Counted from the first letter of the stretch, positions 10,354 through 32,218 are shown. The stretch is DNA of 35,863 nucleotides from Thermoplasmatota archaeon (GCA_041599855.1 JBFILE010000001.1:1-35863), one strand, 5' to 3'. Translations and numbers: made by a program. Notes: a model not told the origin generated them from the letters alone.

Positions 10354-12138
10354 ATGGTGTCCGGGACGCCACAATCGGACGACGGCGGCCTGGCCCTCAT
10401 CACATGGTTCGTCGGCGGCATCACCTTCGTCGCCCTCCTCGGCCTCATCCTCTGGGCCATGTCCGCGATGACGCCGTCCGACCCGGAGGTGACGGGCGAG
10501 ACAAGCATGATCCTCGCGAGGGACATCACGGAAATCCTCGTGCGCCCCGGGACCCCTTCGTGGACGACCCATGTGGACGCGCTCGTCCTGCAATCCGCCC
10601 AGCCGGGGTTCGGCAACGGCCAAGGCATCCTCGACGTCCCCGCCCTCGACCTGCTCAATCGCGGCGAGCCGGAGGTGACGGATGCCTCGAACGGCTACCT
10701 GGACATGCCGGAACTCATGGCCGCCATGGACATCGACGACCGCGGCATCCACATCCGTGCGTACCCATCCTACACCCACAATCCCGCGTGCGGGGGTGGT
10801 GAAAGCGGCATCGACGCCTACCGGGTCGCGCTCCTTGAACCGGCACCCGCCGAACGCGGCACCCGCCAATGGGAATCCTCCATCCTCGCCCGCCTTTGCG
10901 CGTCGTACACGAACGCCTCCTACGACCCGACGACGGGAACGGGTTCCAACGTCGAGATGTCCACGGCCGCGAGCAACATCACGCCGCACCTGACCCCTCG
11001 ATTCCTCGGCTTCGCATACCAGGAGTACCGCGGCGGACTCCCGCGGGACATCGGGGACTACGGGTGGTCGCTCGCCGAGGACGGCGGCACATGGCTTGCC
11101 CGGTTCGGCGACGGCACGGACATCGCCTACAATTCCGGTGAGGAGGATCGTTTGGCGAGCCCGCGGATCGAGGCCGCCGGCGTCTCCCGGATCACCCTCA
11201 CATGGCGGGAGCGCGTCACCGATGACGGGACCACCCCGGCCATCGACCGGGGCGTCGTGCAGGTGGGTACGATCTCGGTGGCCGATGTGACCACGTGGCT
11301 CCCGGATGATGCCACGTCGAGCACGGACACCGCCGGCGCATGGGTGGCGCGGAGTGCCACGTTCGTTCCCGCGAGTCCGTTCGAAGGCGGCATCCGCGTC
11401 GCATTCACATGGATCGCGTCCGCGGTCCCGCCCCGCGCCCTCGTGAGCGGAGGCTGGGAGATCGATGACATCGTGGTGAAGGACGACAGCGGACGCACCC
11501 TCTGGACCAACGACTTCGAGCTGGACTCGGCCGGAGTGGATGCGGTCATCGTGGGCTCGGGCGCGAGCGTCGACCACACGATTGATCCGCTTTCCCAAGG
11601 CGCGTTGACCGCCTTCGTGTCCCGCGGCGGCGCATTGATCATCCTCCCGACAAGCGGCGACCCGCAGGCATTCGAGGATTCCTTCGGCCTCGTCCGGAGC
11701 GACACCACGAACGGCACGAAGCCCCCCCGGCACAAACATCCCGTCCTTGTGACGCCGAATGCCCTGGCGACCGCATGGTACCCGGAGAGTGGAACGTGGA
11801 CGGTTCCCGCCGCGTGGTCCGGCACGTATGACCCGGCGCTCGTCTCGAAGCGCCTCGAATCGAAGCTGCTCGTCGATCGACGCGGACGACTCGGGGAGGG
11901 GACCGTGATCGCGAGCGCGTTCGCCCTTGAAGCGCTCCCCGCCGGGGATGACCTGCGCTTCCTTGCGAACACGCTCATGTTCGCTGCGAACCGGGACCTG
12001 TATGCGGAAGCCGGCCCGCCCATCCCGACCGATCACGAGGTCGGAACTTCGTCCAGCATCCTTTTCGGACGCGGCTCGGACCGGGCAGAGGACGTGGTGC
12101 TTCTCACCTACGTGTGGTATGAGGGTAGACCGAGTTGA
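10354..12138 (+). CDS. Hypothetical membrane-anchored extracellular protein with a pilin-like N-terminus
   Basis: N-terminus MVSGTPQSDDGG-LALITWFVGGITFVALLGLILWAM carries the same D-D-x-G motif plus hydrophobic helix as the pilus-cluster proteins. The mature part is Thr/Ser/Gly-rich with several N-x-S/T sequons. The C-terminal segment (VDAVIVGSGASV...FVSRGGALIILPTSG...HPVLVTPNAL) loosely resembles class-I-glutamine-amidotransferase-like (DUF4350-like) folds, which is a weak call. Confidence 0.55.
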   Translation: MVSGTPQSDDGGLALITWFVGGITFVALLGLILWAMSAMTPSDPEVTGETSMILARDITEILVRPGTPSWTTHVDALVLQSAQPGFGNGQGILDVPALDLLNRGEPEVTDASNGYLDMPELMAAMDIDDRGIHIRAYPSYTHNPACGGGESGIDAYRVALLEPAPAERGTRQWESSILARLCASYTNASYDPTTGTGSNVEMSTAASNITPHLTPRFLGFAYQEYRGGLPRDIGDYGWSLAEDGGTWLARFGDGTDIAYNSGEEDRLASPRIEAAGVSRITLTWRERVTDDGTTPAIDRGVVQVGTISVADVTTWLPDDATSSTDTAGAWVARSATFVPASPFEGGIRVAFTWIASAVPPRALVSGGWEIDDIVVKDDSGRTLWTNDFELDSAGVDAVIVGSGASVDHTIDPLSQGALTAFVSRGGALIILPTSGDPQAFEDSFGLVRSDTTNGTKPPRHKHPVLVTPNALATAWYPESGTWTVPAAWSGTYDPALVSKRLESKLLVDRRGRLGEGTVIASAFALEALPAGDDLRFLANTLMFAANRDLYAEAGPPIPTDHEVGTSSSILFGRGSDRAEDVVLLTYVWYEGRPS

Positions 12139-12154
12139 ATCGGCCACCCGATTC
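12137..12154. terminator. Hairpin between convergent genes (GAATCGG-CCAC-CCGATTC)
   Basis: Perfect 7-bp stem with a 4-nt loop, overlapping the TGA stop (12136-12138) of the 10354 gene. It lies in the 50-nt gap before the convergent TauE gene. Confidence 0.25.
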
Positions 12155-12995: not shown

Positions 12996-13134
12996 CCATG
13001 ACGGGCGGGGCATCCATGCCGGGGCGCCGGGGGACGGACGCGTGCCAGCCGGCCGCAACCCCCCTGCACGGGCACAGGTTCGGGTTGACAGACCCGCCAA
13101 GATGGGCGACGCGCGTTTTTCCCCCGGCCGATTG

Positions 13135-13179: not shown

Positions 13180-13899
13180 ATGCCTGCAACCCTGTCCACG
13201 ACGGGGATCTCCGGCCTCGATGCTCAACTTGGCGGCGGGGTCCCCCGAGGATCCACGATCCTGCTCCTGTCGGAGCCAGGCAACGCCATCTCCCTTTTCT
13301 CGGAGCAGTTCGCAGGTGGCGGGCTCATGGTGAATGATCCGGTCACGTACATCGAGATGGATCGCCCGCCTGTTGGCCTTCGGGACAGGATCCTCGCGTT
13401 CAAGCAGGGGAACGGGACCCAACCCCAGCTCGACGTCCACGACGGGTACTCGAGCCAGTTTGCCATCGCGCGGACCGCAGCGAAGCAACCGGGCGTCCTC
13501 GGGATGAAGCGGGAGGACGTGTTCAACACGGCCATCAAGGCCGCCATGAGCGCGGGACAGAATTATCGCCTCGTCATCGAGAGCCTCAGTGGATTCACGC
13601 GCCCCGAGAACGAGGCCAGCGTCGTCGAGTTCGTCCGTAACCTCAGCTTCATCGGCCAGGAATACGGGGGCATGCACATGATCTCCCTCGTGAAGGGCCT
13701 CCACAGCCCCCAGTTCGAGACCCAGTTGCGCCATCTCGCAACAGGTGTCCTCGAGGTCGGGTCCGAGAAGAAGGGGTTCGGGATCTACTCGTACCTCATC
13801 GTCTCGAAGATGCTGAACGTCCGGGATCCGGTCCGCATGCTCCTCTTCAAGGAGACGGACAAGGGATTGTGGCTGGAATCCACGAAGCGGGTGTTCTGA
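13180..13899 (+). CDS. KaiC/RecA-superfamily, ArlH(FlaH)-like protein with a degenerate Walker A motif
   Basis: 239 aa. TGISGLDAQLGGGVPRGSTILLLSEPGNAISLFSEQFA aligns to the KaiC/ArlH pattern tGIpgLDelLgGGlprGs..li.GppGtGKT. Walker-B-like YRLVIESLSGF is present. The P-loop reads S-E-P-G-N-A-I-S and has no lysine. Confidence 0.7.
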   Translation: MPATLSTTGISGLDAQLGGGVPRGSTILLLSEPGNAISLFSEQFAGGGLMVNDPVTYIEMDRPPVGLRDRILAFKQGNGTQPQLDVHDGYSSQFAIARTAAKQPGVLGMKREDVFNTAIKAAMSAGQNYRLVIESLSGFTRPENEASVVEFVRNLSFIGQEYGGMHMISLVKGLHSPQFETQLRHLATGVLEVGSEKKGFGIYSYLIVSKMLNVRDPVRMLLFKETDKGLWLESTKRVF

Positions 13900-13966
13900 T
13901 CCGTGCGGAGGCGGGCGTACTGCTCGCCGTCAGCGGTAAATTGCCCCCTTGGCTCTTCCCGTGCCT

Positions 13967-13978
13967 ACATATAGAGGG
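13967..13978 (+). promoter_or_regulatory. TATA-box-like element (ACATATAGAGGG) upstream of the first prepilin gene
   Basis: A/T-rich box followed by GGG, 22-33 nt upstream of ATG 14000. A second candidate, GGTAAATT, lies at 13935-13942. Confidence 0.3.
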
Positions 13979-13999
13979 TCTTGGCGAGCAGGGGTCTGG

Positions 14000-15177: not shown

Positions 15178-15681
15178 ATGATCAAACGACGCTCGACAGG
15201 CATCCGCCGGAACGACTCAGGCGTGTCCGAGGTCATCGGTTTCCTCCTGATGTTCGTCATCTCGAGCTTCCTCCTCGTCATCGCCATGTCCACGTTCAAC
15301 AACTCGCAGGACACGAGCGAGGGCGTCGTGACCGCAGTCGAGATGAAGAGTGTCGCCGCGCGCGTCGCAAGCCGCGTCCTCGAAGCGTCCATCGTGGCGC
15401 AGGATTTCCCCAACGCCACCTACGAGATCCAGGTGGACCTGCCGACGCCTCCCAACGACCGCGACTACCGCGTGACACTCACCGCATCCTCGGTGGATGT
15501 GGACACGACGAAAGGCAGCGCCACGGCAACCACGACCACGTACAAGCTGGACGCGATCAACGACCTCGTGCTCTCCGGCGAAGTGTACAGCTACCACAAG
15601 ACCGCCGTCATCCGGTACGCCCCAGTGATCTCGGGCAGCACCCTGACGAAGACCATCACCCTCCTCCCCCTCCAGGACTGA
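15178..15681 (+). CDS. Small archaeal type IV prepilin-like protein (167 aa; candidate major subunit)
   Basis: MIKRRSTGIRRNDSGVSEVIGFLLMFVISSFLLVIAM: short basic n-region plus Pilin_N motif. GGAGGA lies 7 nt upstream of ATG 15178. Confidence 0.75.
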   Translation: MIKRRSTGIRRNDSGVSEVIGFLLMFVISSFLLVIAMSTFNNSQDTSEGVVTAVEMKSVAARVASRVLEASIVAQDFPNATYEIQVDLPTPPNDRDYRVTLTASSVDVDTTKGSATATTTTYKLDAINDLVLSGEVYSYHKTAVIRYAPVISGSTLTKTITLLPLQD

Positions 15682-15685
15682 TACC

Positions 15686-18600
15686 ATGGAACGCTCGATC
15701 AATCTCCGGGAATTCATCCACGCGCTCCGGGACTCGAGCGCCGACGTCCCGCCCGCCCGACTCCTTGCGAACGCGCCCGATGCATGGGCCGCGCTCACGA
15801 CCGACGACCGCGCTGCGATCCTCGCCCATTTCGACATGGCCGACGTGGACGCCGACGCCCTGACCATCGCCATCCGCAAGGTCTCGGATGGACCGTCCAC
15901 GGTGGACAATGTCCGCGTGATCCTGTCATGGCCGGGAGACGACGCCGCGACCGACGGCCACGATTCCGGTGACCAGCGTGCCGACGGTGAAGAGGTTCCG
16001 GCGCAGGAAGGACTCCCGTCAACCGCCCACGGGGAACTGGAAGGTCCGCCTGTGGCGGAAGCCCTCGCCGACGACAGCGGAGAACCCGCCCCGGACCTGT
16101 CGCCCGACATGTCGCCCGGAATGCCGCTGGACGAAGCGCCGGACATGTCGCCCGGAATGCCGCGCGACGACGCGCCGGACATGGCCCCCGCGTCGGACGA
16201 AGGCCACGCCCCAATCGACACCGACCACTTCGCGTTCGACGAAACGACCACCGCCGAGGTCCTGCCGAACGAGGCCTCCGAGGATGGGGCCCAACCGGCC
16301 ACCTTCGAACATTTCGAGGCCCTGGCGGAAGACGCATCCGCCGAGGCCATGATGGCGGAGGGGTTGCCGGAGACCGATGACGCCGTCGAAATGGACGTGT
16401 CTGCGCCTTCCGACAGCGAACCATTCGCGGAATCCGCCCTCGTCCATGCCTCTCCCGATGAGCCGGTTTTCGTGACTGCGGAGGAAGTGCCGGGAACGGA
16501 ACTCGCGGGCCACGGCGTCCTCTCCCCGCCCGGGGCCCATGACCACGCCCCGGGCTACGCCGGTCCCGATTCAAACGCCTCGGCACCCGAGCCCTTCGAC
16601 GATCTCGACGCCATGACGGAAGAGCGGCAGGGCCCGACCGCCCTTGCGATCGTCGATGATGAACCGACCCTGGATGCCGACGCTGGACCCCTCGCCGAGG
16701 AGCCGGAACCGGTCGACCCGGAAACCGGAAGCGCAGCGGCGGAAGCGGGTGCTCCCGCGGACGCCGACACCGACGCCGAAGTCGGGGGCGAACTCCCCCC
16801 CGGCGAGGGCGATCCCTTCGAGGAACCGAAGAAGGGCCTCTTCGGAAAACTCTTCAAGAAAAAAGCTGCGGACGCATCCGATTCCGACGGGCCGATCACG
16901 GTCATCCCGCCCCTTGAGGCCCCCCTCCGCGAGATCGAGGTCTACCCGATCCAGGACCCCTACGCGTTCGTCCGCATCGCCTACGATGACAAGGCGCACG
17001 AGTACGTCTACGAGGTCCTTGAACCGCAGATGGATGAGCGGGAACAGAACATCCTCGAATTCGTCGAGGAGACCCTCGTCGATGTCATCGAGGTCGGCCT
17101 CGCAAAGCTCGGCATGAAGGCCGCCGCCGAGATGCTCACACGGAGCATCGACGAGATCATCTTCGACTACTCCATCGTCCTTTCCCCCAAGTCCAAGGAG
17201 AAGGTCGTGTACTACATCCTGAGGAATTTCCTCGGGTTCGGAAAACTCGACCCCATGATGCGGGACAGTGAGATCGAGGATATCTCGTGCGACGGACCCA
17301 ACATCCCGATCTTCGTGTACCACCGGAAGTACGAGTCGTTCCGCAGCACCATCATGTTCAATGATCATGACGAAGCGGATTCCTTCGTCATCCGGCTCGC
17401 CCAGCGGTCCGGGAAGCACATCTCGATCGCCGAACCCCTGCTCGATGCCACGCTCCCGGACGGGTCGCGTCTGAATGCGACGTTGTCCGACGAGGTTACC
17501 GCGAACGGGTCCACGTTCACCATCCGGAAGTTCAAGCCGGATCCGTTCTCCCCGCCTGACCTTGTCCGCTTCGGCACCATGAATGCCGACATCCTCGCGT
17601 ACTGGTGGCTTGCCGTCCAGAATGGCGCGAGCGCCATCTACGCCGGAGGGACGGCTTCCGGGAAGACGACATCGCTCAATGCGATCCTGCTCTTCATTCC
17701 CGCGCAGATGAAGATCGTATCGATCGAGGATACGCGTGAAGTGAACCTGCCGCACCCGAACTGGATCCCCGGTGTGACGCGATCCGGCTTCGGGCCCCGC
17801 GACTCCCACGGGCGACAAGCCGGTGAGATCGACATGTTCACGCTCCTGAAGGCGGCCCTCCGCCAGCGGCCGGAATACATCCTCGTGGGTGAAGTGCGTG
17901 GCGCCGAGGCGTACGCCCTCTTCCAGGCCATGGCCACGGGCCACACGGCCTACGGGACCATGCACGCGGACTCGGCGGAAAGCGTCATCCACCGGTTGGA
18001 ATCGAGCCCGATCTCCATCCCGCGGAGTCTCCTTGAAGCCCTCGACATCGTCTCCATCCAGATCCAGACCCGCATCGGGGAACGCCGCGTGCGCCGCACC
18101 AAGGAACTCATCGAGATCGTGGGACTCGACCCCCATACCCGGGAGATCCTCACGAACGAGGTGTTCTCGTGGCATCCCGCCACGGATGAATTCGAGTTCA
18201 GCGGCGTCTCGTACGTCCTTGAGCGCATCCAGATGGAGCGGAACATGAGCGCCCACGACATGCGCCTCGAATTCGACGACCGGAAGCTCGTCATCGACTG
18301 GCTCATCAAGAAGGAGATCAACGATTACCTCGAAGTCGCCCACGTGATCCAACGCTACTACAAGGAGAAGGACAAGCTCATGGAGGAGGTCCGCCGCGAC
18401 ATGGAGGACGCACCGGTGGCCGATGAGCCGATGGCGGCGGATGACGCGTCGGACGACGAGCCCTTCGAGTTCGACGCCACTCCCCCGGATCATGAGAACG
18501 TCCTCGAACGCGGCGACCATGACCTCCTCGAAGCCGGCGATCCGGACCGCCTCGAACCCGGGGACCCGGATCTCCTTGAAGCCGGGAACGGCGACCTCCT

Positions 18601-18838
18601 CGAAGCCGGGAACGGCGACCTCCTTGAGAGCGGCGGATTCACGGCCCTGCCGAGCGAGGTCCCGAGCCCCGAGGAATCCCTCCACCGGGGCGACGGGGAT
18701 TCCCCGGATGCCGAAGGCGGCGCGGACGCGGCAGATGCGACCGACGACCGCAGGGACCACGGCCTTGTGGCGCCGTTGAACAGGAAGAAGAACGGGTCGC
18801 CCGACGGCGAGAACGGGGAGGGCGAGCGTGGCGCTTAA
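15686..18838 (+). CDS. ArlI/FlaI/PilB-family type IV filament secretion ATPase, with a ~400-aa N-terminal extension and a ~130-aa acidic repeat-containing C-terminal tail
   Basis: The core starts near residue 400 (ITVIPPLEAPLREIEVYPIQDPYAFVRIAYDD...YEVLEP). IEDISCDGPN...; Walker A AGGTASGKTTSLNA; Walker B KIVSIEDTREV; PEYILVGEVRGAEA; His box GHTAYGTMHA. ATG is 4 nt after the stop of the preceding pilin gene. Confidence 0.85.
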   Translation: MERSINLREFIHALRDSSADVPPARLLANAPDAWAALTTDDRAAILAHFDMADVDADALTIAIRKVSDGPSTVDNVRVILSWPGDDAATDGHDSGDQRADGEEVPAQEGLPSTAHGELEGPPVAEALADDSGEPAPDLSPDMSPGMPLDEAPDMSPGMPRDDAPDMAPASDEGHAPIDTDHFAFDETTTAEVLPNEASEDGAQPATFEHFEALAEDASAEAMMAEGLPETDDAVEMDVSAPSDSEPFAESALVHASPDEPVFVTAEEVPGTELAGHGVLSPPGAHDHAPGYAGPDSNASAPEPFDDLDAMTEERQGPTALAIVDDEPTLDADAGPLAEEPEPVDPETGSAAAEAGAPADADTDAEVGGELPPGEGDPFEEPKKGLFGKLFKKKAADASDSDGPITVIPPLEAPLREIEVYPIQDPYAFVRIAYDDKAHEYVYEVLEPQMDEREQNILEFVEETLVDVIEVGLAKLGMKAAAEMLTRSIDEIIFDYSIVLSPKSKEKVVYYILRNFLGFGKLDPMMRDSEIEDISCDGPNIPIFVYHRKYESFRSTIMFNDHDEADSFVIRLAQRSGKHISIAEPLLDATLPDGSRLNATLSDEVTANGSTFTIRKFKPDPFSPPDLVRFGTMNADILAYWWLAVQNGASAIYAGGTASGKTTSLNAILLFIPAQMKIVSIEDTREVNLPHPNWIPGVTRSGFGPRDSHGRQAGEIDMFTLLKAALRQRPEYILVGEVRGAEAYALFQAMATGHTAYGTMHADSAESVIHRLESSPISIPRSLLEALDIVSIQIQTRIGERRVRRTKELIEIVGLDPHTREILTNEVFSWHPATDEFEFSGVSYVLERIQMERNMSAHDMRLEFDDRKLVIDWLIKKEINDYLEVAHVIQRYYKEKDKLMEEVRRDMEDAPVADEPMAADDASDDEPFEFDATPPDHENVLERGDHDLLEAGDPDRLEPGDPDLLEAGNGDLLEAGNGDLLESGGFTALPSEVPSPEESLHRGDGDSPDAEGGADAADATDDRRDHGLVAPLNRKKNGSPDGENGEGERGA
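16103..16200 (+). repeat. 36-nt in-frame tandem repeat in the ATPase N-terminal extension
   Basis: PDMSPGMPLDEA / PDMSPGMPRDDA / PDMAPASDEG. At the DNA level, ggacatgtcgcccggaatgccgc occurs twice. Confidence 0.8.
18515..18634 (+). repeat. Five 24-nt in-frame tandem repeats in the ATPase C-terminal tail
   Basis: DHDLLEAG / DPDRLEPG / DPDLLEAG / NGDLLEAG / NGDLLESG. gaagccgggaacggcgacctcct is duplicated exactly. Confidence 0.85.
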
Positions 18839-19703
18839 CGAGTTTCAGCGGGTATCGTACAAGATGTTCGGCGGCGCCGTCTCCAACATGGGGAACGTGG
18901 CCAAACTCAAGGACGACCTCAGGCAGGCCCACCTCGGCATCCGGGCGGAAGCGTTCCTAGCGACCAGCTTCGTGATCGCCGGCATATCGACACTCCTCAG
19001 TCTCGTCCTCGCGTTGCTCGCGTACACCATCCTCCTGCCCCTCGCAGGAATCGCACTGCCGCCCCTTGCCATCGTGGGCGTCATCATGTTCCCGATCTTC
19101 GTCGGCCTCATGGCCTACGTGTCCACGGTTGCCGGGCCCGCGTCCCGCGCCAAGGCGCGGTCCAAGGACATCGACATGAAGATCCCGTACGCGCTGAACT
19201 ACATCGCGGCAATGGCCAGCGCCGGGGTCCAGCTCGACGAGATGTTCCGGTCCCTTGCGAACCAGAAGATCTACGGGGAGTGCGCGCGGGAAGCCGAACG
19301 GCTGTACCGTGACATGGCCTACTTCGGACGCGATTCCGTGAGCGCCATGAAGCTCGCCATCGGACGGTCGCCGTCCGAGAAGTGGACGGAATTCCTCCAG
19401 GGCGCCATCACCACCGTCACGAGTGGCGGCGACCTGCAGGTGTACTTCCAGGCCAAGGCGCAGCGGTACATGTGGGAGAACCGCCAGGAACAGAAGGCCT
19501 TCGTCGAGATGATGGGGCTCATGGCGGAAACGTATGTGACCGCGTGTGTGGCCGGCCCCCTCTTCCTCATCGTCATGATGGCGATCATGGGCATGATGGG
19601 AGGCGGCGGACCCGGTCAACTGCTCCTCATCGTGTACGGGCTCCTGCCCATTGCGAATGCCGGTTTCGTCTTCGCCCTCCAGGCGATGACCCCGGAGGTG
19701 TGA
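18828..19703 (+). CDS. Type IV filament platform protein, single T2SSF domain (ArlJ/TadB-like half)
   Basis: N-terminal TM helices, a cytoplasmic T2SSF-like domain (IPYALNYIAAMASAGVQLDEMFRSLA...SAMKLAIGRSPSEKWTEFLQGAITTVTSGGDLQVYF), then 2 C-terminal TM helices. GTG start with GGGGAGGG 6 nt upstream. Overlaps the ATPase stop by 11 nt. Confidence 0.75.
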   Translation: MALNEFQRVSYKMFGGAVSNMGNVAKLKDDLRQAHLGIRAEAFLATSFVIAGISTLLSLVLALLAYTILLPLAGIALPPLAIVGVIMFPIFVGLMAYVSTVAGPASRAKARSKDIDMKIPYALNYIAAMASAGVQLDEMFRSLANQKIYGECAREAERLYRDMAYFGRDSVSAMKLAIGRSPSEKWTEFLQGAITTVTSGGDLQVYFQAKAQRYMWENRQEQKAFVEMMGLMAETYVTACVAGPLFLIVMMAIMGMMGGGGPGQLLLIVYGLLPIANAGFVFALQAMTPEV

Positions 19704-22600: not shown

Positions 22601-25192
22601 TTGTCAACGGGTCGAACACGTGCCAAGGTCCGCCCTCCGCCCCAGCGGACGCCCCGCAGCATCGCCCGTGACGACTCCGGCAACATGATCCTGCTTGCCG
22701 GCATCGTCCTCGCCCTGGCTCTTGTGACCACCTCCATCGGCCTCACCCAGTTGAACGAGGCCGCCGGCGATTCCTCCGACACGAGCAAGACCACCTTCGT
22801 CGAGGAATGGCGCTTCATCCGGGAGCGCACGCGGGACGTGTACGCGAGCGCCATCGGGCTCACGAGCGACGCCTCCTCCGTCCACGAGGTCCTGAACACC
22901 ACGGTCCTCGAACTCGAATTCCTGCAGAACGGCCGAGGCTTCGACATGATCGCCATCCCCGCGAACGGGAGCGCCCCAACGAGTGAGTTGGATCTCGTGA
23001 ACGGGGCCAACCGGTACGATGACCTCGTGACGCTGGACGGGAAACGCCTCTACGGCGCGTACGACGGAACGAACGACGGCTACATCTGGACCGACGGCGG
23101 CGCGGGCTACCTCCAGGCCGTGGTCCTCTACTACTATTTCTCGAACACGCAGATGAACCTCACGGAGATCGCCATCATCTCCGTGAATGCCGAACCCTCG
23201 GGGGCTCCCACCGCGCCCCGGTATCTGGACCTGAACAGCGGCATTCCGTCAGGCGTGAGCGTTGGCGCCGGGAATGCCGCCTACGTGACCCTCGACTGGA
23301 ACGCGCCCGCATCCCCCGGCGGCGGACCCATCCGCAGCTACACGATCTACGCGGACAACACCCTGATCGCCACCGTGGACGGCGACGTCTACACGTACAA
23401 CGACACCGCGAGGATCCAGGGGACACTCGTCGACTACGCGGTCCGCGCAAACAACGCGTACGGAGCGAGTGACTCGGCCAGCGGCAACATCACCCCCGGT
23501 CAACCCCCGTACGCCCCTTCCGGCCTGACCGCAACCCCGGACGACACCGGGATCGACCTGTCATGGTCCGCACCTGCATCCGGAAGTGCCTCCCTGACGG
23601 GCTACTACCTGTACCGCGGAACAAACCCGTCCGCACTCGGCTACCTGTCCTCGACGGGCTCGTCCACGACCACCTACGAGGACAACACCGCAGTCCCCGG
23701 CACTTCGTACTATTACGCCGTCCGCGGACGCAGCGCCGTCGGTAGCGGGTCGAGCGCCACGGTGGGACCCGTGGTCCGCGTGGACGAGCCCGGGGCACCC
23801 AGATTCCTCATCGCAAACGCAGGAAACACGAACGTCACGGTCACCTGGTCCGCGCCCCAGAATGATGGCGGCGCCGCCATCACCGACTACCACGTGGCAC
23901 GAGGACCGTCCGCCGCGTCCCTGACCCGGATCGCGTCGGTCGGCACCGCACTGCAGTACCTCGATACGGGCTTGACCAACACCCAGCAGTACTACTACGC
24001 GATCACCGCCGAGAATACGGCTGGGGAGGGACCGGGAACCACGGCCGTGGCAGCCACCCCCCAGGAGGCTCCGTCCCCCCCGAACAACCCTCTCGCAACG
24101 CCTTCCGGCGGGTCGATCACCCTCACGTGGGACGCGCCGACATTCGTCAACGGGACGATCAGTGCGTATCGCGTATACAACGAAACCGGCGCGAGCCCGG
24201 TCCTGATGACCCAGGTGGCCACAACATCGGCCACCCTGACCGGACTCCACAACGGGTACACGTATTCCCTCTCCGTGTCGGCCGTTTCAACCGGTGGAGA
24301 GGGTGCCTCGACCATTCCCCTCGCCGCCATCCCCTGGCAGCCTGCTGCAGCCCCCACGTCCTTGACGGCGACGCCGGACAACGGCGAGAACGACCTCACA
24401 TGGACCCTGCCAACCGACACCGGCGGATTCCCGATCACGGCGGTGCGGGTATACGGTGGCGCCACGGATCCGCCTACGACCCTCATCGCGAGCATCGCCC
24501 CCGGCACGTCGTACAGCCACACGACCGTGGTGGCCGGGGTCACGTACCACTACCGGGTGGCCGCCGTCACCACGCACGGCGAGGGCACCCGCTCCAGCGT
24601 GGCAAGTGCCACCGCCGCGACTGCTCCCGGTGTGCCGCTGCTGCCGGCGGCCGTCGGGTCCCCGGCCCGCATCGATGTCTCATGGACACCCCCGACCCTT
24701 GACGGATGGTCCCCGATCACGAACTACAAGATCTACCGGGGAACCTCGCCCCTGTCGCTGTCGCTCCTTGCAACCGTCGGGGACACGTCCTCCTACGCCG
24801 ACACGAGCGTGACCAACCTCGTGACCTACTACTACACCATCTCGGCGGTGAACGCACTCGGTGAAAGCGCGCAATCGACAGTCACGAGTGGCATGCCCGT
24901 GGGGGCTCCGTCGGCGCCGCTGAACCTGGCCGCCGTGGGCCTCGCCCTCCGGATCGATCTCACGTGGGATGAGCCGGCGAGCGACGGGGGTAGTGCCATC
25001 ACGTCGTACCGCGTGTATGGCGGAACATCGCCCAACCCGACGGTGCTCATTGCAAGCGTGAGCGCGCCGACGCTGTCGTACTCGGCGACGGTTCCGGCCC
25101 TCGTGACATGGCACTACCGGGTCACGGCCGTGAATGCCGAAGGGGAAAGCACGTACTCGAACGAAGTGTCGGCCATGGCCACGCTCATCTGA
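22601..25192 (+). CDS. Pilin-like N-terminus fused to a ~190-aa domain and seven fibronectin type III domains (863 aa)
   Basis: N-terminus ...RSIARDDSGN-MILLAGIVLALALVTTSIG. Seven ~90-aa repeats each carry W (LDWNAP, LSWSAP, VTWSAP, LTWDAP, LTWTLP, VSWTPP, LTWDEP), Y.(I/V/L)Y and YYY/Y.V...N..GES, which are FN3 hallmarks. TTG 22601 is the only in-frame canonical start that retains the conserved D-x-G-N motif. ATG 22686 is the alternative. The rest of ORF 21401-25192 is an out-of-frame overlap with the platform gene. Confidence 0.7.
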   Translation: MSTGRTRAKVRPPPQRTPRSIARDDSGNMILLAGIVLALALVTTSIGLTQLNEAAGDSSDTSKTTFVEEWRFIRERTRDVYASAIGLTSDASSVHEVLNTTVLELEFLQNGRGFDMIAIPANGSAPTSELDLVNGANRYDDLVTLDGKRLYGAYDGTNDGYIWTDGGAGYLQAVVLYYYFSNTQMNLTEIAIISVNAEPSGAPTAPRYLDLNSGIPSGVSVGAGNAAYVTLDWNAPASPGGGPIRSYTIYADNTLIATVDGDVYTYNDTARIQGTLVDYAVRANNAYGASDSASGNITPGQPPYAPSGLTATPDDTGIDLSWSAPASGSASLTGYYLYRGTNPSALGYLSSTGSSTTTYEDNTAVPGTSYYYAVRGRSAVGSGSSATVGPVVRVDEPGAPRFLIANAGNTNVTVTWSAPQNDGGAAITDYHVARGPSAASLTRIASVGTALQYLDTGLTNTQQYYYAITAENTAGEGPGTTAVAATPQEAPSPPNNPLATPSGGSITLTWDAPTFVNGTISAYRVYNETGASPVLMTQVATTSATLTGLHNGYTYSLSVSAVSTGGEGASTIPLAAIPWQPAAAPTSLTATPDNGENDLTWTLPTDTGGFPITAVRVYGGATDPPTTLIASIAPGTSYSHTTVVAGVTYHYRVAAVTTHGEGTRSSVASATAATAPGVPLLPAAVGSPARIDVSWTPPTLDGWSPITNYKIYRGTSPLSLSLLATVGDTSSYADTSVTNLVTYYYTISAVNALGESAQSTVTSGMPVGAPSAPLNLAAVGLALRIDLTWDEPASDGGSAITSYRVYGGTSPNPTVLIASVSAPTLSYSATVPALVTWHYRVTAVNAEGESTYSNEVSAMATLI
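23198..25189 (+). repeat. Array of seven divergent FN3-encoding repeats (~270-290 nt each)
   Basis: Periodicity is at the protein level, as described for the CDS. The DNA copies are diverged and I saw no long exact repeats. Confidence 0.7.
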
Positions 25193-25830
25193 CGAATCGG
25201 ATCGGATTCGCGCGGGGGCGCGGGGGCGCGCGCCGCGGAACCCGGAACGGCCAAAGAGAACGGGGGAAATCAACCATCCGAATCAACAGCAATGAACCGG
25301 AACCACTCGATGATGCAGGCCACTTCCTGCTCCTGGCGGGGATCATCCTCGTCCTCGCGTTCACCGCGAGCGCCTACACCTACAGCCTTGTCACGGACCT
25401 GAATGCGTCCACGGCGCGGGACCAGGATGCCGGCCTCGTACCGGATTACCGGTTCATCCATGAGCACATGCGTGCCACCGTCCACTCGGGCACAAACAGC
25501 GATCTTTCCAACACGAGTGCCCTGGCACTCTTCGAATCCTCGGAAGCCACCATCCGCACCCTGGCCATCTCGCGCGGTCTCGAAGTGAGCCTCACCCTCG
25601 CCGGGAACAGTTCGGGCGCGGTCCGGGATGAGTATGACATCGGAGCCGGCGGCTGGGACTTCATCACCGATTATTTGGGAGCAACCCTGAGCGGCGATTA
25701 TGACGGCGGCAACGACGGCCTGCTGTGGCTGGGAGACTCCACGGGCCGCGTCCAGGCACTGGCGTATGAAATCCAGGTCCGGGACGACCGGATGACCGTG
25801 CAGGAAACCGTGATCCTCGCGGTGGATTAG
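25108..25830 (+). CDS. Small pilin-like protein (second N-terminal class); start codon unresolved
   Basis: ...NEPEPLDDAGH-FLLLAGIILVLAFTASAY aligns with the N-termini of the 22601, 26082 and 31025 proteins. The only canonical in-frame start upstream of this motif is ATG 25108. That start overlaps the previous gene by 85 nt and gives a ~70-aa basic leader. Confidence 0.55.
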   Translation: MALPGHGRECRRGKHVLERSVGHGHAHLTNRIGFARGRGGARRGTRNGQRERGKSTIRINSNEPEPLDDAGHFLLLAGIILVLAFTASAYTYSLVTDLNASTARDQDAGLVPDYRFIHEHMRATVHSGTNSDLSNTSALALFESSEATIRTLAISRGLEVSLTLAGNSSGAVRDEYDIGAGGWDFITDYLGATLSGDYDGGNDGLLWLGDSTGRVQALAYEIQVRDDRMTVQETVILAVD

Positions 25831-26081: not shown

Positions 26082-29000
26082 ATGGGCGACGCAGGGAACA
26101 TCCACGTACTTGAAGCGATCCTCATCGGGATTGTCATGGTTGGTGCCATCAGCTTCGTCATCACGTTCGACGCGCCCACCACGACCACCGAACCGGAGCG
26201 TCGCGCCCTCGAGGAATCCGGGACGGACGCATTGAACATCATCTACGAGACCCCGCTCACCGATGTCCGATACGGCAACAACACATTGTCCAAGTTCATC
26301 GCCCTCGCCCTCCAGGGGAATACCGGACCCTTGAGCACGCGATTGGAGGAACTCCTCCCACCGGCGACCGCCTACAACGTCTACATCAACAACGGCTACG
26401 GGTCGCTGCCCGTGTACGTGAGCCATGAACCGTCCGGTGAGACCGTCACGTCCTCGAAACTCCTCGAACCGAAATGGACGTACGTGTTCACGGAACGCTC
26501 GCACTTCGTCACGTCGACCCCCACCAGTCTTGGGGTGTATGCGTTGCCCGTGTACAACTCGAACCCCGTCGATGATGGCGGTGTGCCCCTCGCCGTCCAC
26601 TTCTCGGGAATCATCCGCGACAGCGGCAGGACCTTCAACCTCACCTCGTACTATTCCACGATCCAGGGTGGCCCCGGGTCGATCACCACCAACGTCGGGC
26701 TGCATCTCCTGAACTCCGAAGGCGAAGCCATCACCCTCGTCGACCGGTCCTCGACGGACAACACGACCTACTACGTGGGCTACGAGGACGTGGCATCGTA
26801 CGGCCTCCCGACGGGAACGAAACTCATCATCCAGATCCCCCGGGGCTTCGACGTCACCGTGACCGCTGCCGAGAACGAGGACTGGACGATCCTCGAGACC
26901 GTGACCGGCAACTCCACGGGCGGCCGCATCGTCGCGGAACTCGCATCCACACTGAACCCCACGAAAGGCCATTTCGTGTTCCACATGGACAACGTCGTCG
27001 ACCTCTACGATTTCCACCAACTCGACATGCGCCTCGCCGGCACCGTCCAAGGCCGTGCGGAGGCCGTGATCCAGGTCCGGGATTCACCCGTCCCGACAGG
27101 CGGCGACTTCCATGGCGTGTACGCGTCCATCCCGAAACCCATGGGGAACGGCGAAGCCAACCAGTGGCTCGTCGGGTTCCTGAATCCGCGGAGCCTGATC
27201 ACGACGGCGAACGCGACACTCCTTGCCGGACTCGACCCGGATGACCCCGAAATCCAGGCGTCATCCCGGTCGATCACCCTCACCCACGTCCAGATCCGAC
27301 AGCCGGAAGGGAAATCCCTTTTCTCCGGCGTGAGCGTCCTGAATGGCGAGCCCGGGTGGTCCGTCACGTCCGCGTCGCGCCTCGACTGGACGGGGGAGCT
27401 GAACCTGACCTCGAATTCCATGGAGGAATGGACGCTGCAGGTCACCGGCACCGGAACCGGCACCCGCCGGGAGATCCGGAACTACGTGAACGTGGACGCC
27501 AACGTCGGATCCCACACGGAGACCCTCACCCGCCGCATCCTGCCTGCCGTATTCTACGACAATGTGCTCCCCGAAGGCGCGGTGCTGCCGTTCACCGGGT
27601 ACGAAACGACCGTCGGCAACGGGTACGCCCTCACCACGAACGCCATCCACCGCGGCGTCAACATCCCGGGATCCTGGCACTACAACATCACGCCGGTCGC
27701 GATCGAGCGCGACAACCTCAACCTCGTGAACATCACGCTCGAGGATACCCTCGTCCCCATCGGTTCGAGCGCCTACGTGAATGTGGACAACCACAACCTG
27801 CTCCTCACCCTCGCGGACCTCGGCATCCCCGCGACGACCACGTTCCGCGTGTATGCACCCTACGGTCTCGACAACCACACGGCTATCGAGACCTCATCCA
27901 TCACCGAGGGCGATGTCATGTCGTCCGGCGTTGCGAAGCTCCTCGTCCGGGATGTGAACGCCGACGGCGTCCAGGACGTCATCGTCGCCACCACAACCAA
28001 CAAGATCTTCGTCCTCGACGGCCGGACCGGCAGCAAGATGAGCGGGTACCAGTTGGCGCTCGATTCCTATCTGGAGGCCCAGGGATTGCCCACCGCGAAC
28101 ATGGGTGACCTGTCGATCATGACCGCGGCCCAGATCGACGGTGACACCGTGTATCTCCTGGGCATGGCGCAAGGGAAGCCGAACGTCTTCGCCATCAATG
28201 CGGACTTCACCGTCCGTTGGGCCCAGAGCACGTCCGCATCCTACGCAACCTACGAAGTGCGCGGATACACGGGGATCCCCGCCACCTTCGACGGGTTCGA
28301 CATCACGGCCATCGATGCCTCCGCGGACGTGAGCGGCGACGGGATCGCAGACGTGCTCGCGGCCGACTCGAACGGCATCGTCTTCGCATTCAACGGAACC
28401 ACGGGCGACCTCGTCCCGTCCTGGATCTACGACACCTCGGCCGAACGGGCTCTCGTCCGGGGCGGCGTCATCGGACAGGCGGCGACCGACGGTTGGTTCG
28501 TCACCACGGGCTCGGGCAGCAGTGTCGGACTGTCGCAACCGATCAACCTGACCGCGGGCACATACACGACGGACCCGGGCGCAGCGCTCACCGCGGAACT
28601 CCAGAAACCGTACGTGGACAACCGGAACCCCGGTCTTGTGGCCATCGGCCCGAACCGCGAAACACTCTGGTTCGTGAACGGTGGAAGTTTCGATGTGATC
28701 GACGCCGCCGACATCGACAATGACGGAGTCACGGATTTCGTGGGCGGTGCAGCGGACGGGTTCGTCTATGCCTACAACGGTACCCAATCCTCATTCCCGC
28801 TCTACGGCGAAATGTTCGCCACGGGAACCGAGATCGTGGACGTGGCTTGGCTGGATGCGGACACGGGATGGTCCGTGAGCAATGACGGGTACTTCATGTT
28901 CACGACAGACGGGTGGACGACACGGACGTACTACATGGACGAAGTGGCCGCGTACTATGCGTTCCCGGGTGCGAACACCTTGAGCTTCGCTGACGCGAAC

Positions 29001-31025
29001 ACGGGGTACGTGGCGGGCGATGCGGGGACCATGTGGAAGACGGAGACCGGAGGCACCACCTTCGGCGCCACCGCCTACCTGATCAAGGTCTGGATCCCCG
29101 GGGTCGGATACACGGCGACCCTTCCGGGGACCGGCGAAGTGGGACGGGATTTCGAGGACATGCACGCCTTCGACCCGTACACCGTGCTCACGGTGGGGAC
29201 CGTCTGCCCGAACTGCAACGGCCGGGCAACCGTCATCGGAACCTATGATGGCGGAACCAACTGGAAGGACGCGGAATGGTCCGGAGACCCCATCTCGAAG
29301 ACGCTCCACCGGATCATCGTGGTGGACCCGTTGAATGTGATCGTGGTGGGTCAGGACGGAGCCGTCGGGCACGGGTTCCGTGAATCCGACCAGACATGGA
29401 CGTTCACGAAATTGACCAGCGTGGCCGGCGGGGAAACCCTGTACGGCGGCTGGTTCCGTGACGTGACCACGGGCTGGGTCGTGGGCGAAAGCGGCGCCCT
29501 CTACAAGACCACCGACAGCGGCGCATCATGGTCGAAGATCACGGTTCCCACGAACCGGACGCTCCAGGACATCGATTTCCTTGATCCCGCAAAGGGACGC
29601 AACGGGGAATGGGGCGTCCTCGTCGGGGACGACAGCGTGTACATGGAGACCTACGACGGCGGCGCCACGTGGAACCTCCTGCCCCCGTACGCCCTCACGG
29701 ACTACAACCGCGTCAACGTGCTCGAGAACGACGTGGCGAACATCGCGGGCGGGAACACGACCACCCGCGCCTTTGCGCAGACCCACGCATACATGCCCGA
29801 ATCCGTGTTCCAGACCCACAACCTGAACACCCTCGCCGACGGATTCTACACGGACATCACCATCGTCACGGACCACCGGTACGCGGGCGCATCCACGACC
29901 ATCACGATGGAAGCCAGCGTCGACGGCACGAACTGGTTCCCCCTCGACCCGGAGCTCGCAGACGGCATCTACACCGGCACGTTCGGGAACGATTCGTTCT
30001 CGTCCCAGTATGTCGGCTCGGACCTCCACGTGCGGTTCACGCTCGGCGTCGACATCTCCCTGAACCAGAAGTCGTTCCGCGTGAATTCGTTCGCAATCGC
30101 CGCCGATTACGCCATCGGACAATCCACCGGCCAATGGACGGACACGTTCCTCGTGAACGCGGCCAACGCCGGCAAGGTGGACACGGCTGCCACGACTGCG
30201 GACTACAACGCCACGTACGGCCACATCAAGTCGGCCCTGCAGAACCGGATGTGGACGCTCCACGTGGACGGTGCCGTGAACGACCTCGCCATCGTGGCGG
30301 ACATGGACGGGGATGGCGGCATGGACGTGATCATCGGCATCGGTGAAACCCTGTCCGCGGCAAACCTCAGCGCCCTCGGCATCCCCGCAGGCCTCGTCGC
30401 GGATCAACAGAACCGGGTCATGGCATTCAACGGAACGAGTGGCCGTGGCCTGTGGGTGTCGCCGGAATTGCCGGGACCCGTCGTGTTCGTCCGATCCGCC
30501 CACCACGCCCACGCATACGACAGCGTGCCGGACGTGGCCGCCATCGTGCGCATGGAACCCGCGGGCGCCGGCAATTACGATCTCCTGTACTATCTGGACG
30601 GCCTGGACGGAAGCATTCTCGGCGACCCGGTGAACCTCACGATGCCCGTCACCGGGATCGAGGTCGGCGAACTGAAGGCATCGTCCCTCGGGAATGAACT
30701 GGCGATCGGCACATCGCCGCCGAGCACGGTCACACGTCCCGGCTACGCGTACACCTATCACGTCCCGACGGAGCCCGAACTCCTGTGGCGGACGAATCCC
30801 AGTTTCAAGGGCGTGTACTCGTTCACCTACGAGGTCGCCCGGAACAGCCTGTTCGGCGTGTACCCGGTCGAAATTGAAGTGTCGTGGACCACGGGGGCGG
30901 GGGTCGCCCTTGCCCAGCGTTCCCTCACGTACTTCGTGGTGACTCCGCCCAACGGCGCCATGCCCACGAGCCCCATCTACAACATCGAACTCGTCACGTG
31001 GTTCCGGGAGTGGGATCTCGAGTGA
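26082..31025 (+). CDS. Giant (1647 aa) pilin-like surface protein with FG-GAP/VCBS-like and BNR(Asp-box)/Ycf48-like beta-propeller regions
   Basis: N-terminus MGDAGN-IHVLEAILIGIVMVGAISFVITF. FG-GAP-like Ca-binding repeats: DVNADGVQDVIVA...FVLDGRTG (27951), DVSGDGIADVLAA...FAFNGTTG (28326), DIDNDGVTDFVGG...YAYNGT (28712), DMDGDGGMDVIIG...MAFNGTSG (30299). Asp-box / Ycf48-like repeats: TYDGGTNWKD (29241), TTDSGASWSKI (29508), TYDGGATWNLL (29649), plus GW.V(G/S)..G motifs. Many N-x-S/T sequons. Confidence 0.75.
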   Translation: MGDAGNIHVLEAILIGIVMVGAISFVITFDAPTTTTEPERRALEESGTDALNIIYETPLTDVRYGNNTLSKFIALALQGNTGPLSTRLEELLPPATAYNVYINNGYGSLPVYVSHEPSGETVTSSKLLEPKWTYVFTERSHFVTSTPTSLGVYALPVYNSNPVDDGGVPLAVHFSGIIRDSGRTFNLTSYYSTIQGGPGSITTNVGLHLLNSEGEAITLVDRSSTDNTTYYVGYEDVASYGLPTGTKLIIQIPRGFDVTVTAAENEDWTILETVTGNSTGGRIVAELASTLNPTKGHFVFHMDNVVDLYDFHQLDMRLAGTVQGRAEAVIQVRDSPVPTGGDFHGVYASIPKPMGNGEANQWLVGFLNPRSLITTANATLLAGLDPDDPEIQASSRSITLTHVQIRQPEGKSLFSGVSVLNGEPGWSVTSASRLDWTGELNLTSNSMEEWTLQVTGTGTGTRREIRNYVNVDANVGSHTETLTRRILPAVFYDNVLPEGAVLPFTGYETTVGNGYALTTNAIHRGVNIPGSWHYNITPVAIERDNLNLVNITLEDTLVPIGSSAYVNVDNHNLLLTLADLGIPATTTFRVYAPYGLDNHTAIETSSITEGDVMSSGVAKLLVRDVNADGVQDVIVATTTNKIFVLDGRTGSKMSGYQLALDSYLEAQGLPTANMGDLSIMTAAQIDGDTVYLLGMAQGKPNVFAINADFTVRWAQSTSASYATYEVRGYTGIPATFDGFDITAIDASADVSGDGIADVLAADSNGIVFAFNGTTGDLVPSWIYDTSAERALVRGGVIGQAATDGWFVTTGSGSSVGLSQPINLTAGTYTTDPGAALTAELQKPYVDNRNPGLVAIGPNRETLWFVNGGSFDVIDAADIDNDGVTDFVGGAADGFVYAYNGTQSSFPLYGEMFATGTEIVDVAWLDADTGWSVSNDGYFMFTTDGWTTRTYYMDEVAAYYAFPGANTLSFADANTGYVAGDAGTMWKTETGGTTFGATAYLIKVWIPGVGYTATLPGTGEVGRDFEDMHAFDPYTVLTVGTVCPNCNGRATVIGTYDGGTNWKDAEWSGDPISKTLHRIIVVDPLNVIVVGQDGAVGHGFRESDQTWTFTKLTSVAGGETLYGGWFRDVTTGWVVGESGALYKTTDSGASWSKITVPTNRTLQDIDFLDPAKGRNGEWGVLVGDDSVYMETYDGGATWNLLPPYALTDYNRVNVLENDVANIAGGNTTTRAFAQTHAYMPESVFQTHNLNTLADGFYTDITIVTDHRYAGASTTITMEASVDGTNWFPLDPELADGIYTGTFGNDSFSSQYVGSDLHVRFTLGVDISLNQKSFRVNSFAIAADYAIGQSTGQWTDTFLVNAANAGKVDTAATTADYNATYGHIKSALQNRMWTLHVDGAVNDLAIVADMDGDGGMDVIIGIGETLSAANLSALGIPAGLVADQQNRVMAFNGTSGRGLWVSPELPGPVVFVRSAHHAHAYDSVPDVAAIVRMEPAGAGNYDLLYYLDGLDGSILGDPVNLTMPVTGIEVGELKASSLGNELAIGTSPPSTVTRPGYAYTYHVPTEPELLWRTNPSFKGVYSFTYEVARNSLFGVYPVEIEVSWTTGAGVALAQRSLTYFVVTPPNGAMPTSPIYNIELVTWFREWDLE

Positions 31026-32218
31026 TGCGTCGCCGTTCCCTCCTTGGGCGCGATGAGGGAAACCTCTACGCCTTGGAAGCACTCGTGGTGATCACGATCC
31101 TTGCCGCCAACCTTGCATTCGTCATGAGCCTCGACCACCCCAGCAACAACATGGAAGGCACGCGGGTCGACCTCAACCTCGCGGCACGGGACAGCCTCGT
31201 CCTCCTTGAGCGCGCCGTCGGGGACGATCCGGTGTTCGCGAACGACGCGGCCCGCCAGTATGTGACGCAGGCGTTGTACGGGGATCCCGTGAACCTGTCC
31301 CGGAAACTCACCAGCCTCCTGCCGGCGGGCGCTCGCCACAGCGTGTACCTGGACAATGGTCTCGCGACCCGGGAGCTGATCAAGGGTCCCGGCCCCGCGA
31401 AGGAACGGGTGACTGCCCAGGCCGGGTTCAGTTCGAACTGGGCGACGACGCTCATCGTTCCCGACTTCGAGGTGCACTCCGCCACTGCCGGCCGCGTGAC
31501 GTTCACGACCCTTCCCGTGTTCCACGGCCGTGTCCTGTCAACCGCGTCGGTGCCGGTCGAAATCGCGGATGGTTCGGATCAGAACCTGACCACGAGCCTC
31601 GGGAACGGATTCGTGGAAGGCGTTGTGACACCTCTGCCTTCGGCCGGGTCGCCCCAGGCCAACGTGACCTTGGCGTACAAGGATGAATTGCTCGCCGGCC
31701 GCGCGAAGTGGACCCTTGGTGCGGCCGGTGCCGAGGACTCACTCCTCGTTGCCACCCAGTACCTGTCACGCAGCGGATTGAATGCGAGCGCGGTCACCCT
31801 CGACACGGCGGTGACGAGGCCCGGCGACACGGTCACGGTGGCGTATGATTTCACGGCGCTTGAAACCGCATTGGGCACCAATGTCGTCCCGGGCTCGTTC
31901 GCCGTGAACGTGAGCCTCGTTGCGCCAACCCCGCCACCCACCAATGCCACACCATCGTATTACGCGACCGCGTGGACCGCCTCGGCCACCACCACTTCAG
32001 GCACGTTGGATCTCGACATCCCGTTCGACACGTTGTTCGGCGTCCACCTCGTCGATGTGCGGTTGTCGTACACGTTGACGAACGGCGGCGCCACCGAGAT
32101 CGAGCAGGCTGCGCACCTCGTGGAACGTCTCGACGTGGCGTTCAAGGACGGCACGGAGGCGCCCCTGAATCCGGGGTACCGCATCGTGCTTGAGGTCTGG
32201 TTCGACGACTGGCTGTGA
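31025..32218 (+). CDS. Pilin-like protein (397 aa), translationally coupled to the giant protein
   Basis: MRRRSLLGRDEGN-LYALEALVVITILAANLAFVM. The ATG overlaps the upstream TGA (gTGATGc). The mature part is beta-rich with no domain I recognise. Confidence 0.65.
   Translation: MRRRSLLGRDEGNLYALEALVVITILAANLAFVMSLDHPSNNMEGTRVDLNLAARDSLVLLERAVGDDPVFANDAARQYVTQALYGDPVNLSRKLTSLLPAGARHSVYLDNGLATRELIKGPGPAKERVTAQAGFSSNWATTLIVPDFEVHSATAGRVTFTTLPVFHGRVLSTASVPVEIADGSDQNLTTSLGNGFVEGVVTPLPSAGSPQANVTLAYKDELLAGRAKWTLGAAGAEDSLLVATQYLSRSGLNASAVTLDTAVTRPGDTVTVAYDFTALETALGTNVVPGSFAVNVSLVAPTPPPTNATPSYYATAWTASATTTSGTLDLDIPFDTLFGVHLVDVRLSYTLTNGGATEIEQAAHLVERLDVAFKDGTEAPLNPGYRIVLEVWFDDWL

Follow-up and report, generated by a model that had tools for sequence, protein, structure and literature searches.

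The window, a 35,863-nt stretch of DNA from a Thermoplasmatota archaeon (GCA_041599855.1, JBFILE010000001.1:1-35863), carries a type IV filament locus in which the genes of an assembly ATPase and its platform proteins are accompanied by genes of seven proteins with prepilin-like N-termini. With good though not complete confidence, these seven are read here as class III (prepilin) precursors that would be cut after a Gly or Ala residue by a single A24 peptidase. A first-pass annotation of the window had sorted them into two N-terminal classes, a Pilin_N type upstream of the ATPase (class 1) and a second type downstream of the platform genes (class 2); on sequence comparison these classes are five pilin-like families, namely DUF7289, DUF7266 and three families here termed famA, famB and the 10354 family. 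The window corresponds to contig C1 of a metagenome-assembled genome (MAG; 4.49 Mb, 809 contigs, 67% GC, estimated completeness 100%). The seven genes are as follows, with a slash marking the predicted cleavage site and lengths in amino acids (aa):

10354..12138, + strand: pilin-like protein of the 10354 family, 594 aa, leader MVSGTPQSDDGG, D-x-G at 10378-10389 and then a hydrophobic helix
14072..15163, + strand: DUF7289-family pilin, 363 aa, MFRWRSDDG/VSPVIGMIMILAISVVG (PF23960 DUF7289, 43.9 bits, cut-off 27)
15178..15681, + strand: DUF7266-family pilin, 167 aa, MIKRRSTGIRRNDSG/VSEVIGFLLMF (PF23928 DUF7266, 27.7 bits, cut-off 27.6)
22601..25192, + strand: famA copy 1, ...RDDSG/NMILLAGIVLALALV, paralogue of the 25300 gene (fn3 E=1.1e-46, 6 stretches)
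25300..25830, + strand: famA copy 2, ~176 aa from the motif, ...EPLDDAG/HFLLLAGIILVLAF, paralogue of the 22601 gene
26082..31025, + strand: giant famB protein, 1647 aa, MGDAG/NIHVLEAILIGIVMVG (PSII_BNR E=1e-13; weak DUF7262/DUF7288)
31025..32218, + strand: small famB paralogue, 397 aa, MRRRSLLGRDEG/NLYALEALVVITIL, N-domain homologous to that of the 26082 protein (E=2.4e-14)

Asp-x-Gly stands directly before the N-terminal hydrophobic helix, a stretch of ~22-27 residues, in all seven proteins (D-D-G at 14090-14098 in the DUF7289 pilin, D-S-G at 15214-15222 in the DUF7266 pilin, D-S-G at 22673-22681 and D-A-G at 25312-25320 in famA copies 1 and 2). The motif had been described in the first-pass annotation as D-[DE]-x-G; all N-termini are present as quoted there, but the literal form fits only three of the seven (the 22601, 25300 and 10354 proteins), and D-x-G is the form common to all. 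In six of the seven proteins the leader is 5-27 aa long. Residue -1 is Gly throughout, while -2 is uncharged in four proteins (S in 15178 and 22601, A in 25300 and 26082), acidic (D or E) in 14072 and 31025, and ambiguous in 10354. When 3115 putative coding frames of the genome were scanned for D-x-[GA] plus a hydrophobic 20-mer within the first 90 residues, 44 frames matched (1.4%), of which ~16 are themselves pilin-like; the presence of the motif in 7 of the 11 locus genes against this background is therefore far beyond chance (binomial estimate ~1e-10). Relatives were compared by tblastn and jackhmmer against the syntenic loci of related genomes, and the alignment of N-termini with orthologues proposed in the first-pass annotation found the motif kept in related Thermoplasmatota genomes for all seven proteins. 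Sequence logos of four families had a dominant D at -3 and G or A at -1 in each, the two at similar frequencies; position -2 and the remaining leader residues varied, with basic residues further upstream. The prepilin-like character of the N-termini thus stands, as the features looked for in class III precursors, apart from a charge at -2, were found: a small residue at -1, a short hydrophilic leader followed by a hydrophobic segment predicted to be helical, an A24 peptidase in the genome, and linkage to ATPase and platform genes.

The genome yielded a single Peptidase_A24 (PF01478) gene, on C216, whose 241-aa product has both catalytic Asp motifs (TDW...RRAPN and GGADAK). A jackhmmer search of the genome detected no paralogue of this peptidase, and 21 related genomes, including 94-99% complete ones, gave none or one A24 match each. 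In most archaea a single prepilin peptidase handles every substrate, pilins as well as archaellins (PMC4371748), and one peptidase probably serves all seven proteins of the window. The archaellins of this genome, encoded by three tandem genes on contig C31 (~799-3647), read EDRA/EVGIGTLIVFIAMV, and six further Pilin_N-type proteins carry D-x-[GA] (candidates in this group: three on C88, two on C133, and C331 and C601). Every candidate with an unambiguous site has Asp at -3, and about half have a charged -2. D-x-[GA], which archaellins and other Pilin_N pilins share, is, as judged from these N-termini, the general class III cleavage motif of the genome. A genome-wide search had been suggested for the class 2 motif to define the substrate set; the probable set of the single peptidase is ~19 proteins: three archaellins, eight Pilin_N-type proteins, two each of famA and famB, three of the 10354 family, and C615. 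The processing region of the C31 archaellins (NEDRA/EVGIGTLIVFIAMV) is itself unusual, with Ala at -1 and Glu at +1; C31 also carries an ArlI-like ATPase (C31:7216-7959).

These results bear on both explanations that the first-pass annotation had offered for its two classes. The proposal of two substrate classes for one peptidase keeps its second half, a single A24 gene, while the classes themselves dissolve into five protein families. The proposal of two processing fates finds no support, as positions -3 and -1 do not differ between the classes, nor between these and the archaellins of the genome, and the differences lie in the mature N-terminus.

The two proteins encoded before the ATPase gene are of the VS[PE]VIG type, and are likely the filament-forming pilins. 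The first probably begins at the ATG at 14072 (MFRWRSDDG/VSP) and not at 14000, where it had been annotated, and it scores 18.5 bits with Pilin_N, under the cut-off of 25.2. In 53 DUF7289-like sequences, -3 is D/E, -1 is A or G (A27/G26), +1 is V in 51 and +6 is G in 45, which gives a mature N-terminus of V-S/A-x-V-I/V-G. Among 24 DUF7266-like sequences, D occupies -3 in 14, A or G occupies -1 (A14/G10), and E occupies +3 in 16, as it does in the window protein; with this Glu(+3) of V-S-E-V-I-G, the locus has another acidic residue close to a mature N-terminus, besides that of famB described below. The arrangement with the VS[PE]VIG type 5′ of the ATPase gene and the other type 3′ of the platform genes was borne out, and recurs in the syntenic loci L022-L025; the gene placed at 25108 is that of 25300. 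The simple split into two classes did not survive, as class 2 consists of two unrelated families and the 10354 family, of which one only has the Glu for which position +5 had been suggested.

That Glu belongs to famB. In the giant protein, G5 is encoded at 26094-26096 and Glu11 at 26112-26114, and in the small paralogue G12 at 31058-31060 and Glu18 at 31076-31078. The Glu was invariant in two famB alignments, A1 with 25 and A2 with 16 sequences. When a library of 1.84 billion representative proteins was searched with a profile of the famB N-domain, 503 representatives were recovered at E<=1e-3, of which 265 reached E<=1e-10, and position counts were taken from the best 150. Among these best 150, Glu was found in 142/142 representatives covering the position, and G/A lay exactly six residues upstream of it in 123/123; in the same 123, -3 was D/E in 111 and -2 was charged (D/E/K/R/H) in 60, and the annotated leader had a median length of 11 aa. 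The residue after G/A varied (A36, S33, N18, Q13, V11, H5, T4 and others of the 123), and the mature N-terminus reads x-x-x-V-L-E-A; marine group III proteins have MKNTKG/QMHVLEV. Since known A24 peptidases need G, A or S at -1 (PMC4371748) and G/A is the only invariant small residue, the cut is predicted after G/A, which would place the famB Glu at +6. The earlier suggestion of a cut after N/H with Glu at +5 is at odds with these counts, for N/H is variable in famB and it is the preceding G/A, six residues before Glu, that is invariant. Counted from the conserved G/A, position +5 is not a Glu in any of the proteins.

The famB family comprises at least 503 clusters at 50% identity, and the named loci examined were all labelled Thermoplasmatota or unclassified archaea. 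A tblastn search of plasmids with the famB N-domain gave no match, and a word-indexed homology search with the 31025 protein matched itself only. Matches of famB to DUF7262 and DUF7288 were weak (17-22 bits vs. a cut-off of 27) yet recurrent (DUF7288 in 16/25 and DUF7262 in 14/25 relatives; DUF7262 in 32/88 library matches), and that of famA to DUF7261 was weak too (20-22 bits vs. a cut-off of 27); DUF7261 and DUF7262 were each over the cut-off in one of 14 control genomes, Haloferax volcanii being among the genomes matched. Being below the cut-offs, these matches make famA and famB remote relatives of DUF7261, DUF7262 and DUF7288, not members by Pfam's rule. AlphaFold2 models, built on small alignments, gave the famB N-domain a pLDDT of 75, with a helix at 5-32 followed by a helical and beta-sheet domain, and famA a pLDDT of 76.8, with a helix at 6-41 followed by an alpha/beta domain; over residues 11-30 of these N-terminal helices pLDDT was >90. 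A Foldseek search of both models against the PDB returned nothing under E=0.3, so their globular parts are not recognisably like any solved pilin, and the structural support for a pilin assignment is the N-terminal helix only, the rest of the fold speaking neither for nor against it. The giant famB protein bears large propeller/BNR-like domains of adhesin type and has syntenic orthologues of ~1650-1750 aa in relatives. Its stop codon overlaps the start of the small paralogue (TGATG, 31023-31027), which suggests translational coupling of the two.

No Glu is present near the mature N-terminus of famA, the invariant Glu being confined to famB. In 19 famA sequences, -1 is G16/A2/S1, +1 is Q17/H1/N1, and +6/+7 is A-G, with a mature N-terminus of Q-[LM]-[LM]-L-[LV]-[AS]-G (MNNKA/QLLLVSG in marine group III); the two window copies, with N and H, are the exceptions at +1. 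Relatives carry one famA copy of ~196 aa. Compared with L022-L025, famA is duplicated in this genome only, where one copy gained fn3 repeats and both copies swapped the near-invariant Gln(+1) for Asn or His. Copy 1 (872 aa) has a unique domain of ~170 aa after the helix and then six Pfam-detected fn3 repeats, and its start is uncertain, as it is placed at TTG 22601 and the sole in-frame ATG (22685) falls past the motif. For copy 2, no ATG, GTG or TTG occurs between 25108 and the motif at 25312-25320, and the famA gene of L024 (genome G008, 11985-12080) likewise has no ATG, GTG or TTG back to the upstream stop codon. As both lack a usual start and the motif is nevertheless conserved in the protein, a non-canonical start is likely for these two genes, the candidate in the window being an ATC, preceded by GGGGGA, that lies 15 codons ahead of the predicted cleavage site. 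Two apparent variants of the family were rejected: an in-frame fusion of famA to a platform gene in some relatives, suggested by long frames free of stop codons, in which the TadC match and famA turned out to be read in separate frames and the openness of the frame to be an artefact of high GC, and a third famA gene on C656 (RDVG/NLLLIAG), which the famA profile does not recover.

The 10354 protein gave no Pfam or NCBIfam match, and the GC content at third codon positions of its gene (0.84) is consistent with coding. The first-pass annotation had set it outside the cluster. In relatives, however, its homologue lies directly 3′ of the small famB gene or within the locus (L003, L004, L024, L025, L029, L030), and the orthologues have N-termini of the [DE]-x-[GA] plus helix type. 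The family is therefore taken as part of the same system, relocated upstream in this genome, which also has two further paralogues (C154, C165).

The remainder of the locus consists of the assembly machinery and a conserved ATPase-fold gene, and one gene on the other strand separates the 10354 gene from it:

12189-13100, - strand: membrane-protein gene between the 10354 gene and the locus
13180..13899, + strand: KaiC/ArlH-like ATPase-fold protein opening the conserved locus (PF06745 KaiC, E=1.9e-14)
15686..18838, + strand: type IV filament assembly ATPase, 1050 aa (PF00437 T2SSE, E=9e-33, residues 578-789)
18828..19703, + strand: first half of the platform protein (TadC/PilC-like), one T2SSF domain (PF00482, E=3.3e-17)
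19707..22319, + strand: second half of the platform protein, 870 aa (PF00482, E=3.6e-18, residues 662-787)

From the KaiC/ArlH-like gene to the small famB paralogue, a single + strand gene array spans 13180-32218. The assembly ATPase is extended at both ends, its N-terminal extension being long and acidic, and gives a weak PilB3_C match (22.8 bits). It is accompanied in the genome by others, at least four full-length T2SSE ATPases being found in all, plus two weaker or partial matches. The second platform half has its one T2SSF domain downstream of a long membrane region, and the split of the platform into two genes also occurs in relatives. The ATPase core is 50-76% identical to the ATPases of 80 loci, whose MAG labels are mostly Thermoplasmatota, Thermoplasmata, Methanomassiliicoccales or marine group III, which places the host among the uncultured Thermoplasmatota. 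L022-L025 keep the order KaiC - DUF7289 - DUF7266 - ATPase - TadC - TadC - famA - famB (giant) - famB (small), with the KaiC/ArlH-like gene syntenic in L022 and L024, and marine group III loci have a minimal version in which famB and famA are each ~130-150 aa. L036 (JAJPHT010000022.1) is a syntenic archaeal locus whose ATPase core shares 72% identity with that of the window; its record, titled 'Proteobacteria bacterium' MAG, seems to be a wrongly labelled bin.

Motif conservation, family relations, synteny and the single peptidase gene were observed, and the N-terminal helix was predicted. From these sequence comparisons we infer the cleavage, its exact site, the incorporation into a filament and a role of the famB Glu. 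In the proposed mechanism, a short basic or variable leader would end in Asp(-3)-x-Gly/Ala(-1), and the single A24 aspartic peptidase, of the PibD/FlaK type, would cut after Gly/Ala on the cytoplasmic face, freeing an N-terminal hydrophobic helix able to dock into the filament core. The freed helices would enter a filament built mainly from DUF7289 and/or DUF7266 pilins, in which famA, famB and 10354-family proteins, several of them presenting adhesin-like fn3 arrays or propellers for adhesion, would be accessory or minor pilins that probably form a tip/priming complex or decorate the filament. Glu5 neutralises charge in bacterial pilins, and by analogy the famB Glu(+6) probably neutralises a buried positive charge inside the helix bundle, for example the N-terminal amine of a neighbour. 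Beyond this, it is conceivable, though we would sooner doubt than assert it, that famB and famA form a conserved initiator/tip pair, that Glu(+6) does the job of the bacterial Glu5, and that PibD reads Asp(-3) and not a charged -2. If so, existing class III signal peptide (SPIII) screens would consistently overlook these subunits and classify them as 'pilin-like without SPIII motif'.

Several points weigh against reading the seven proteins as processed precursors. Cleavage of the famA, famB and 10354-family proteins is predicted only, and neither the famA nor the famB globular part, as modelled, has a counterpart among PDB structures, solved pilins included, at E<0.3. Both families score under the Pfam cut-offs for DUF7261, DUF7262 and DUF7288. 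Four of the seven proteins carry S or A, and so no charge, at -2, whereas a charged -2 is held critical in the archaeal cleavage rule (the FlaFind rule, taken here as summarised in PMC4371748); these four thus depart from that rule, Asp at -3 being conserved and a charge at -2 not. Two famA genes have only tentative start codons, and with the MAG spread over 809 contigs a second peptidase may have escaped detection.

The missing structural match to known pilins and the uncharged -2 would be accommodated if the class 2 proteins were uncleaved type II anchored membrane proteins, either parts of the machinery or surface adhesins never released into a filament, with Asp-x-Gly as a helix-cap or topology feature. 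This explanation, however, hardly accounts for a G/A at a fixed distance in 123/123 famB representatives or for the G16/A2/S1 of 19 famA sequences, nor for the textbook leaders of 5-6 residues in marine group III (K-G/Q and K-A/Q), and the same -3/-1 pattern recurs in the archaellins and Pilin_N pilins of the genome; we regard it as unlikely. Alternatively, the proteins might be cut one residue later, after N/H, in which case the famB Glu would be a true Glu5, as in the EppA substrates and bacterial pilins that have an acidic residue at +5 (PMC4371748, PMC4471445). Such a cut is chemically possible in the 69 of 123 famB representatives where the residue after G/A is small (A36, S33). In the other 54 (44%) it is N, Q, V, H, T, K, M or I, including the N of the window and the Q of marine group III, and known A24 peptidases, which need G, A or S at -1, do not tolerate such residues there (PMC4371748). 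Further, the invariant column is G/A and not the next residue, and Q at +1 in 17/19 famA sequences matches the G/Q cleavage of Epd pilins (KGQI, KGQV, Table 1 of PMC4371748), which together make the later cut very improbable.

A second, EppA-like peptidase for the proteins with Q, N or H at +1 could also be imagined to lie in sequence missing from the MAG assembly. In Methanococcus, FlaK cuts archaellins and a different enzyme, EppA, cuts Q(+1)/E(+5) pilins (PMC4371748), Q(+1) is present in 17/19 famA sequences, and the assembly is in 809 contigs. Against this stand the one PF01478 match without a jackhmmer paralogue, more than one match in 0/21 related genomes including the 94-99% complete ones, the absence of an EppA-type DUF361 match for any of the proteins, and the estimated 100% completeness of the MAG, so that we give a second peptidase scarcely any weight. 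Processing of all seven precursors after Gly/Ala by the one A24 peptidase accordingly stays the preferred reading.

On that reading, seven unannotated or DUF-only proteins, including two giants of 860-1650 aa, would be placed on one secretion and assembly route in a lineage of uncultured soil or groundwater Thermoplasmatota. Predictors demanding a charged -2 would miss over half of the substrate set, which a D/E(-3)-x-[GA](-1) rule captures, and the invariant Glu(+6) would offer a mutational target for asking whether any archaeal filament uses a Glu5-like contact.

Four known systems were compared with the locus. The EppA/DUF361 pilins (Methanococcus maripaludis EpdA-E), the known precedent for a second pilin type with Q(+1) and an acidic helix residue, resemble the proteins here in being a second pilin type with G/Q cleavage and an acidic residue a few positions into the helix, and in being minor pilins encoded with the machinery. 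Epd pilins, however, have Q(+1), Glu(+5) and a dedicated larger peptidase, whereas here Glu is predicted at +6 in famB and is absent in famA, +1 is N/H in the window, and Q(+1) is typical of famA only. No PF04021 (DUF361) match was found among window proteins, relatives or library matches, and the EppA combination of Q+1, E+5, DUF361 and a large EppA peptidase does not describe this locus. The bacterial type IV pilins and Tad pseudopilins (TadE/TadF, Flp) share a leader ending in Gly and a hydrophobic helix interrupted by one Glu, and likewise have minor pilins, some with large domains, beside the machinery. Their pattern is Gly(-1), Phe/Met(+1) and Glu(+5), with the Glu not at +6, Asp at -3 is not a bacterial feature, and no TadE or pilin Pfam match was found for the window proteins. 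The bacterial prepilin peptidase often also methylates residue 1.

The Haloferax volcanii PilA1-6/DUF1628 (Pilin_N) pilins and archaellins are like the class 1 proteins in their N-termini (G/A, then VSPVIG), with acidic residues before the site there too (DAVS, RAVS, Table 1 of PMC4371748) and one PibD processing both pilins and archaellins. The class 1 proteins of the window differ in being larger (363 and 167 aa), in belonging to DUF7289 and DUF7266, and in scoring below the Pilin_N cut-off. The closest likeness is to the euryarchaeal clade 2 or system 2 loci (H. volcanii PilB4-type; Makarova et al. 2016, PMC4858521; Sivabalasarma & Albers 2026, PMC13705601), membership being judged by the features named in PMC13705601. 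As here, these have an ATPase with N- and C-terminal extensions, and they carry several pilins, some of which lack an SPIII motif, and large adhesin-like proteins (PMC13705601); the extended ATPase (1050 aa), the several pilins (seven pilin-like genes) and the adhesins (fn3 and propeller giants) were all found in the window. The locus also shares with them a pilin set of its own beside the ATPase and platform genes and a KaiC-family ATPase, and its proteins match Pfam families built largely from haloarchaea, DUF7289 and DUF7266 over the cut-off and DUF7261, DUF7262 and DUF7288 weakly. It differs in its host, Thermoplasmatota and not Halobacteria, in famA and famB below the Pfam cut-offs, and in the split platform, for which PMC13705601 gives a single gene, while according to PMC4858521 many clade 2 loci have a pair of tadC genes. 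Taken together, these comparisons point to a largely ordinary archaeal type IV filament locus with two apparent twists, a charge at -3 in place of -2 and, in a large pilin-like family that is mostly unannotated, an invariant Glu predicted at +6, both of which appear to go beyond what was found described in the literature.

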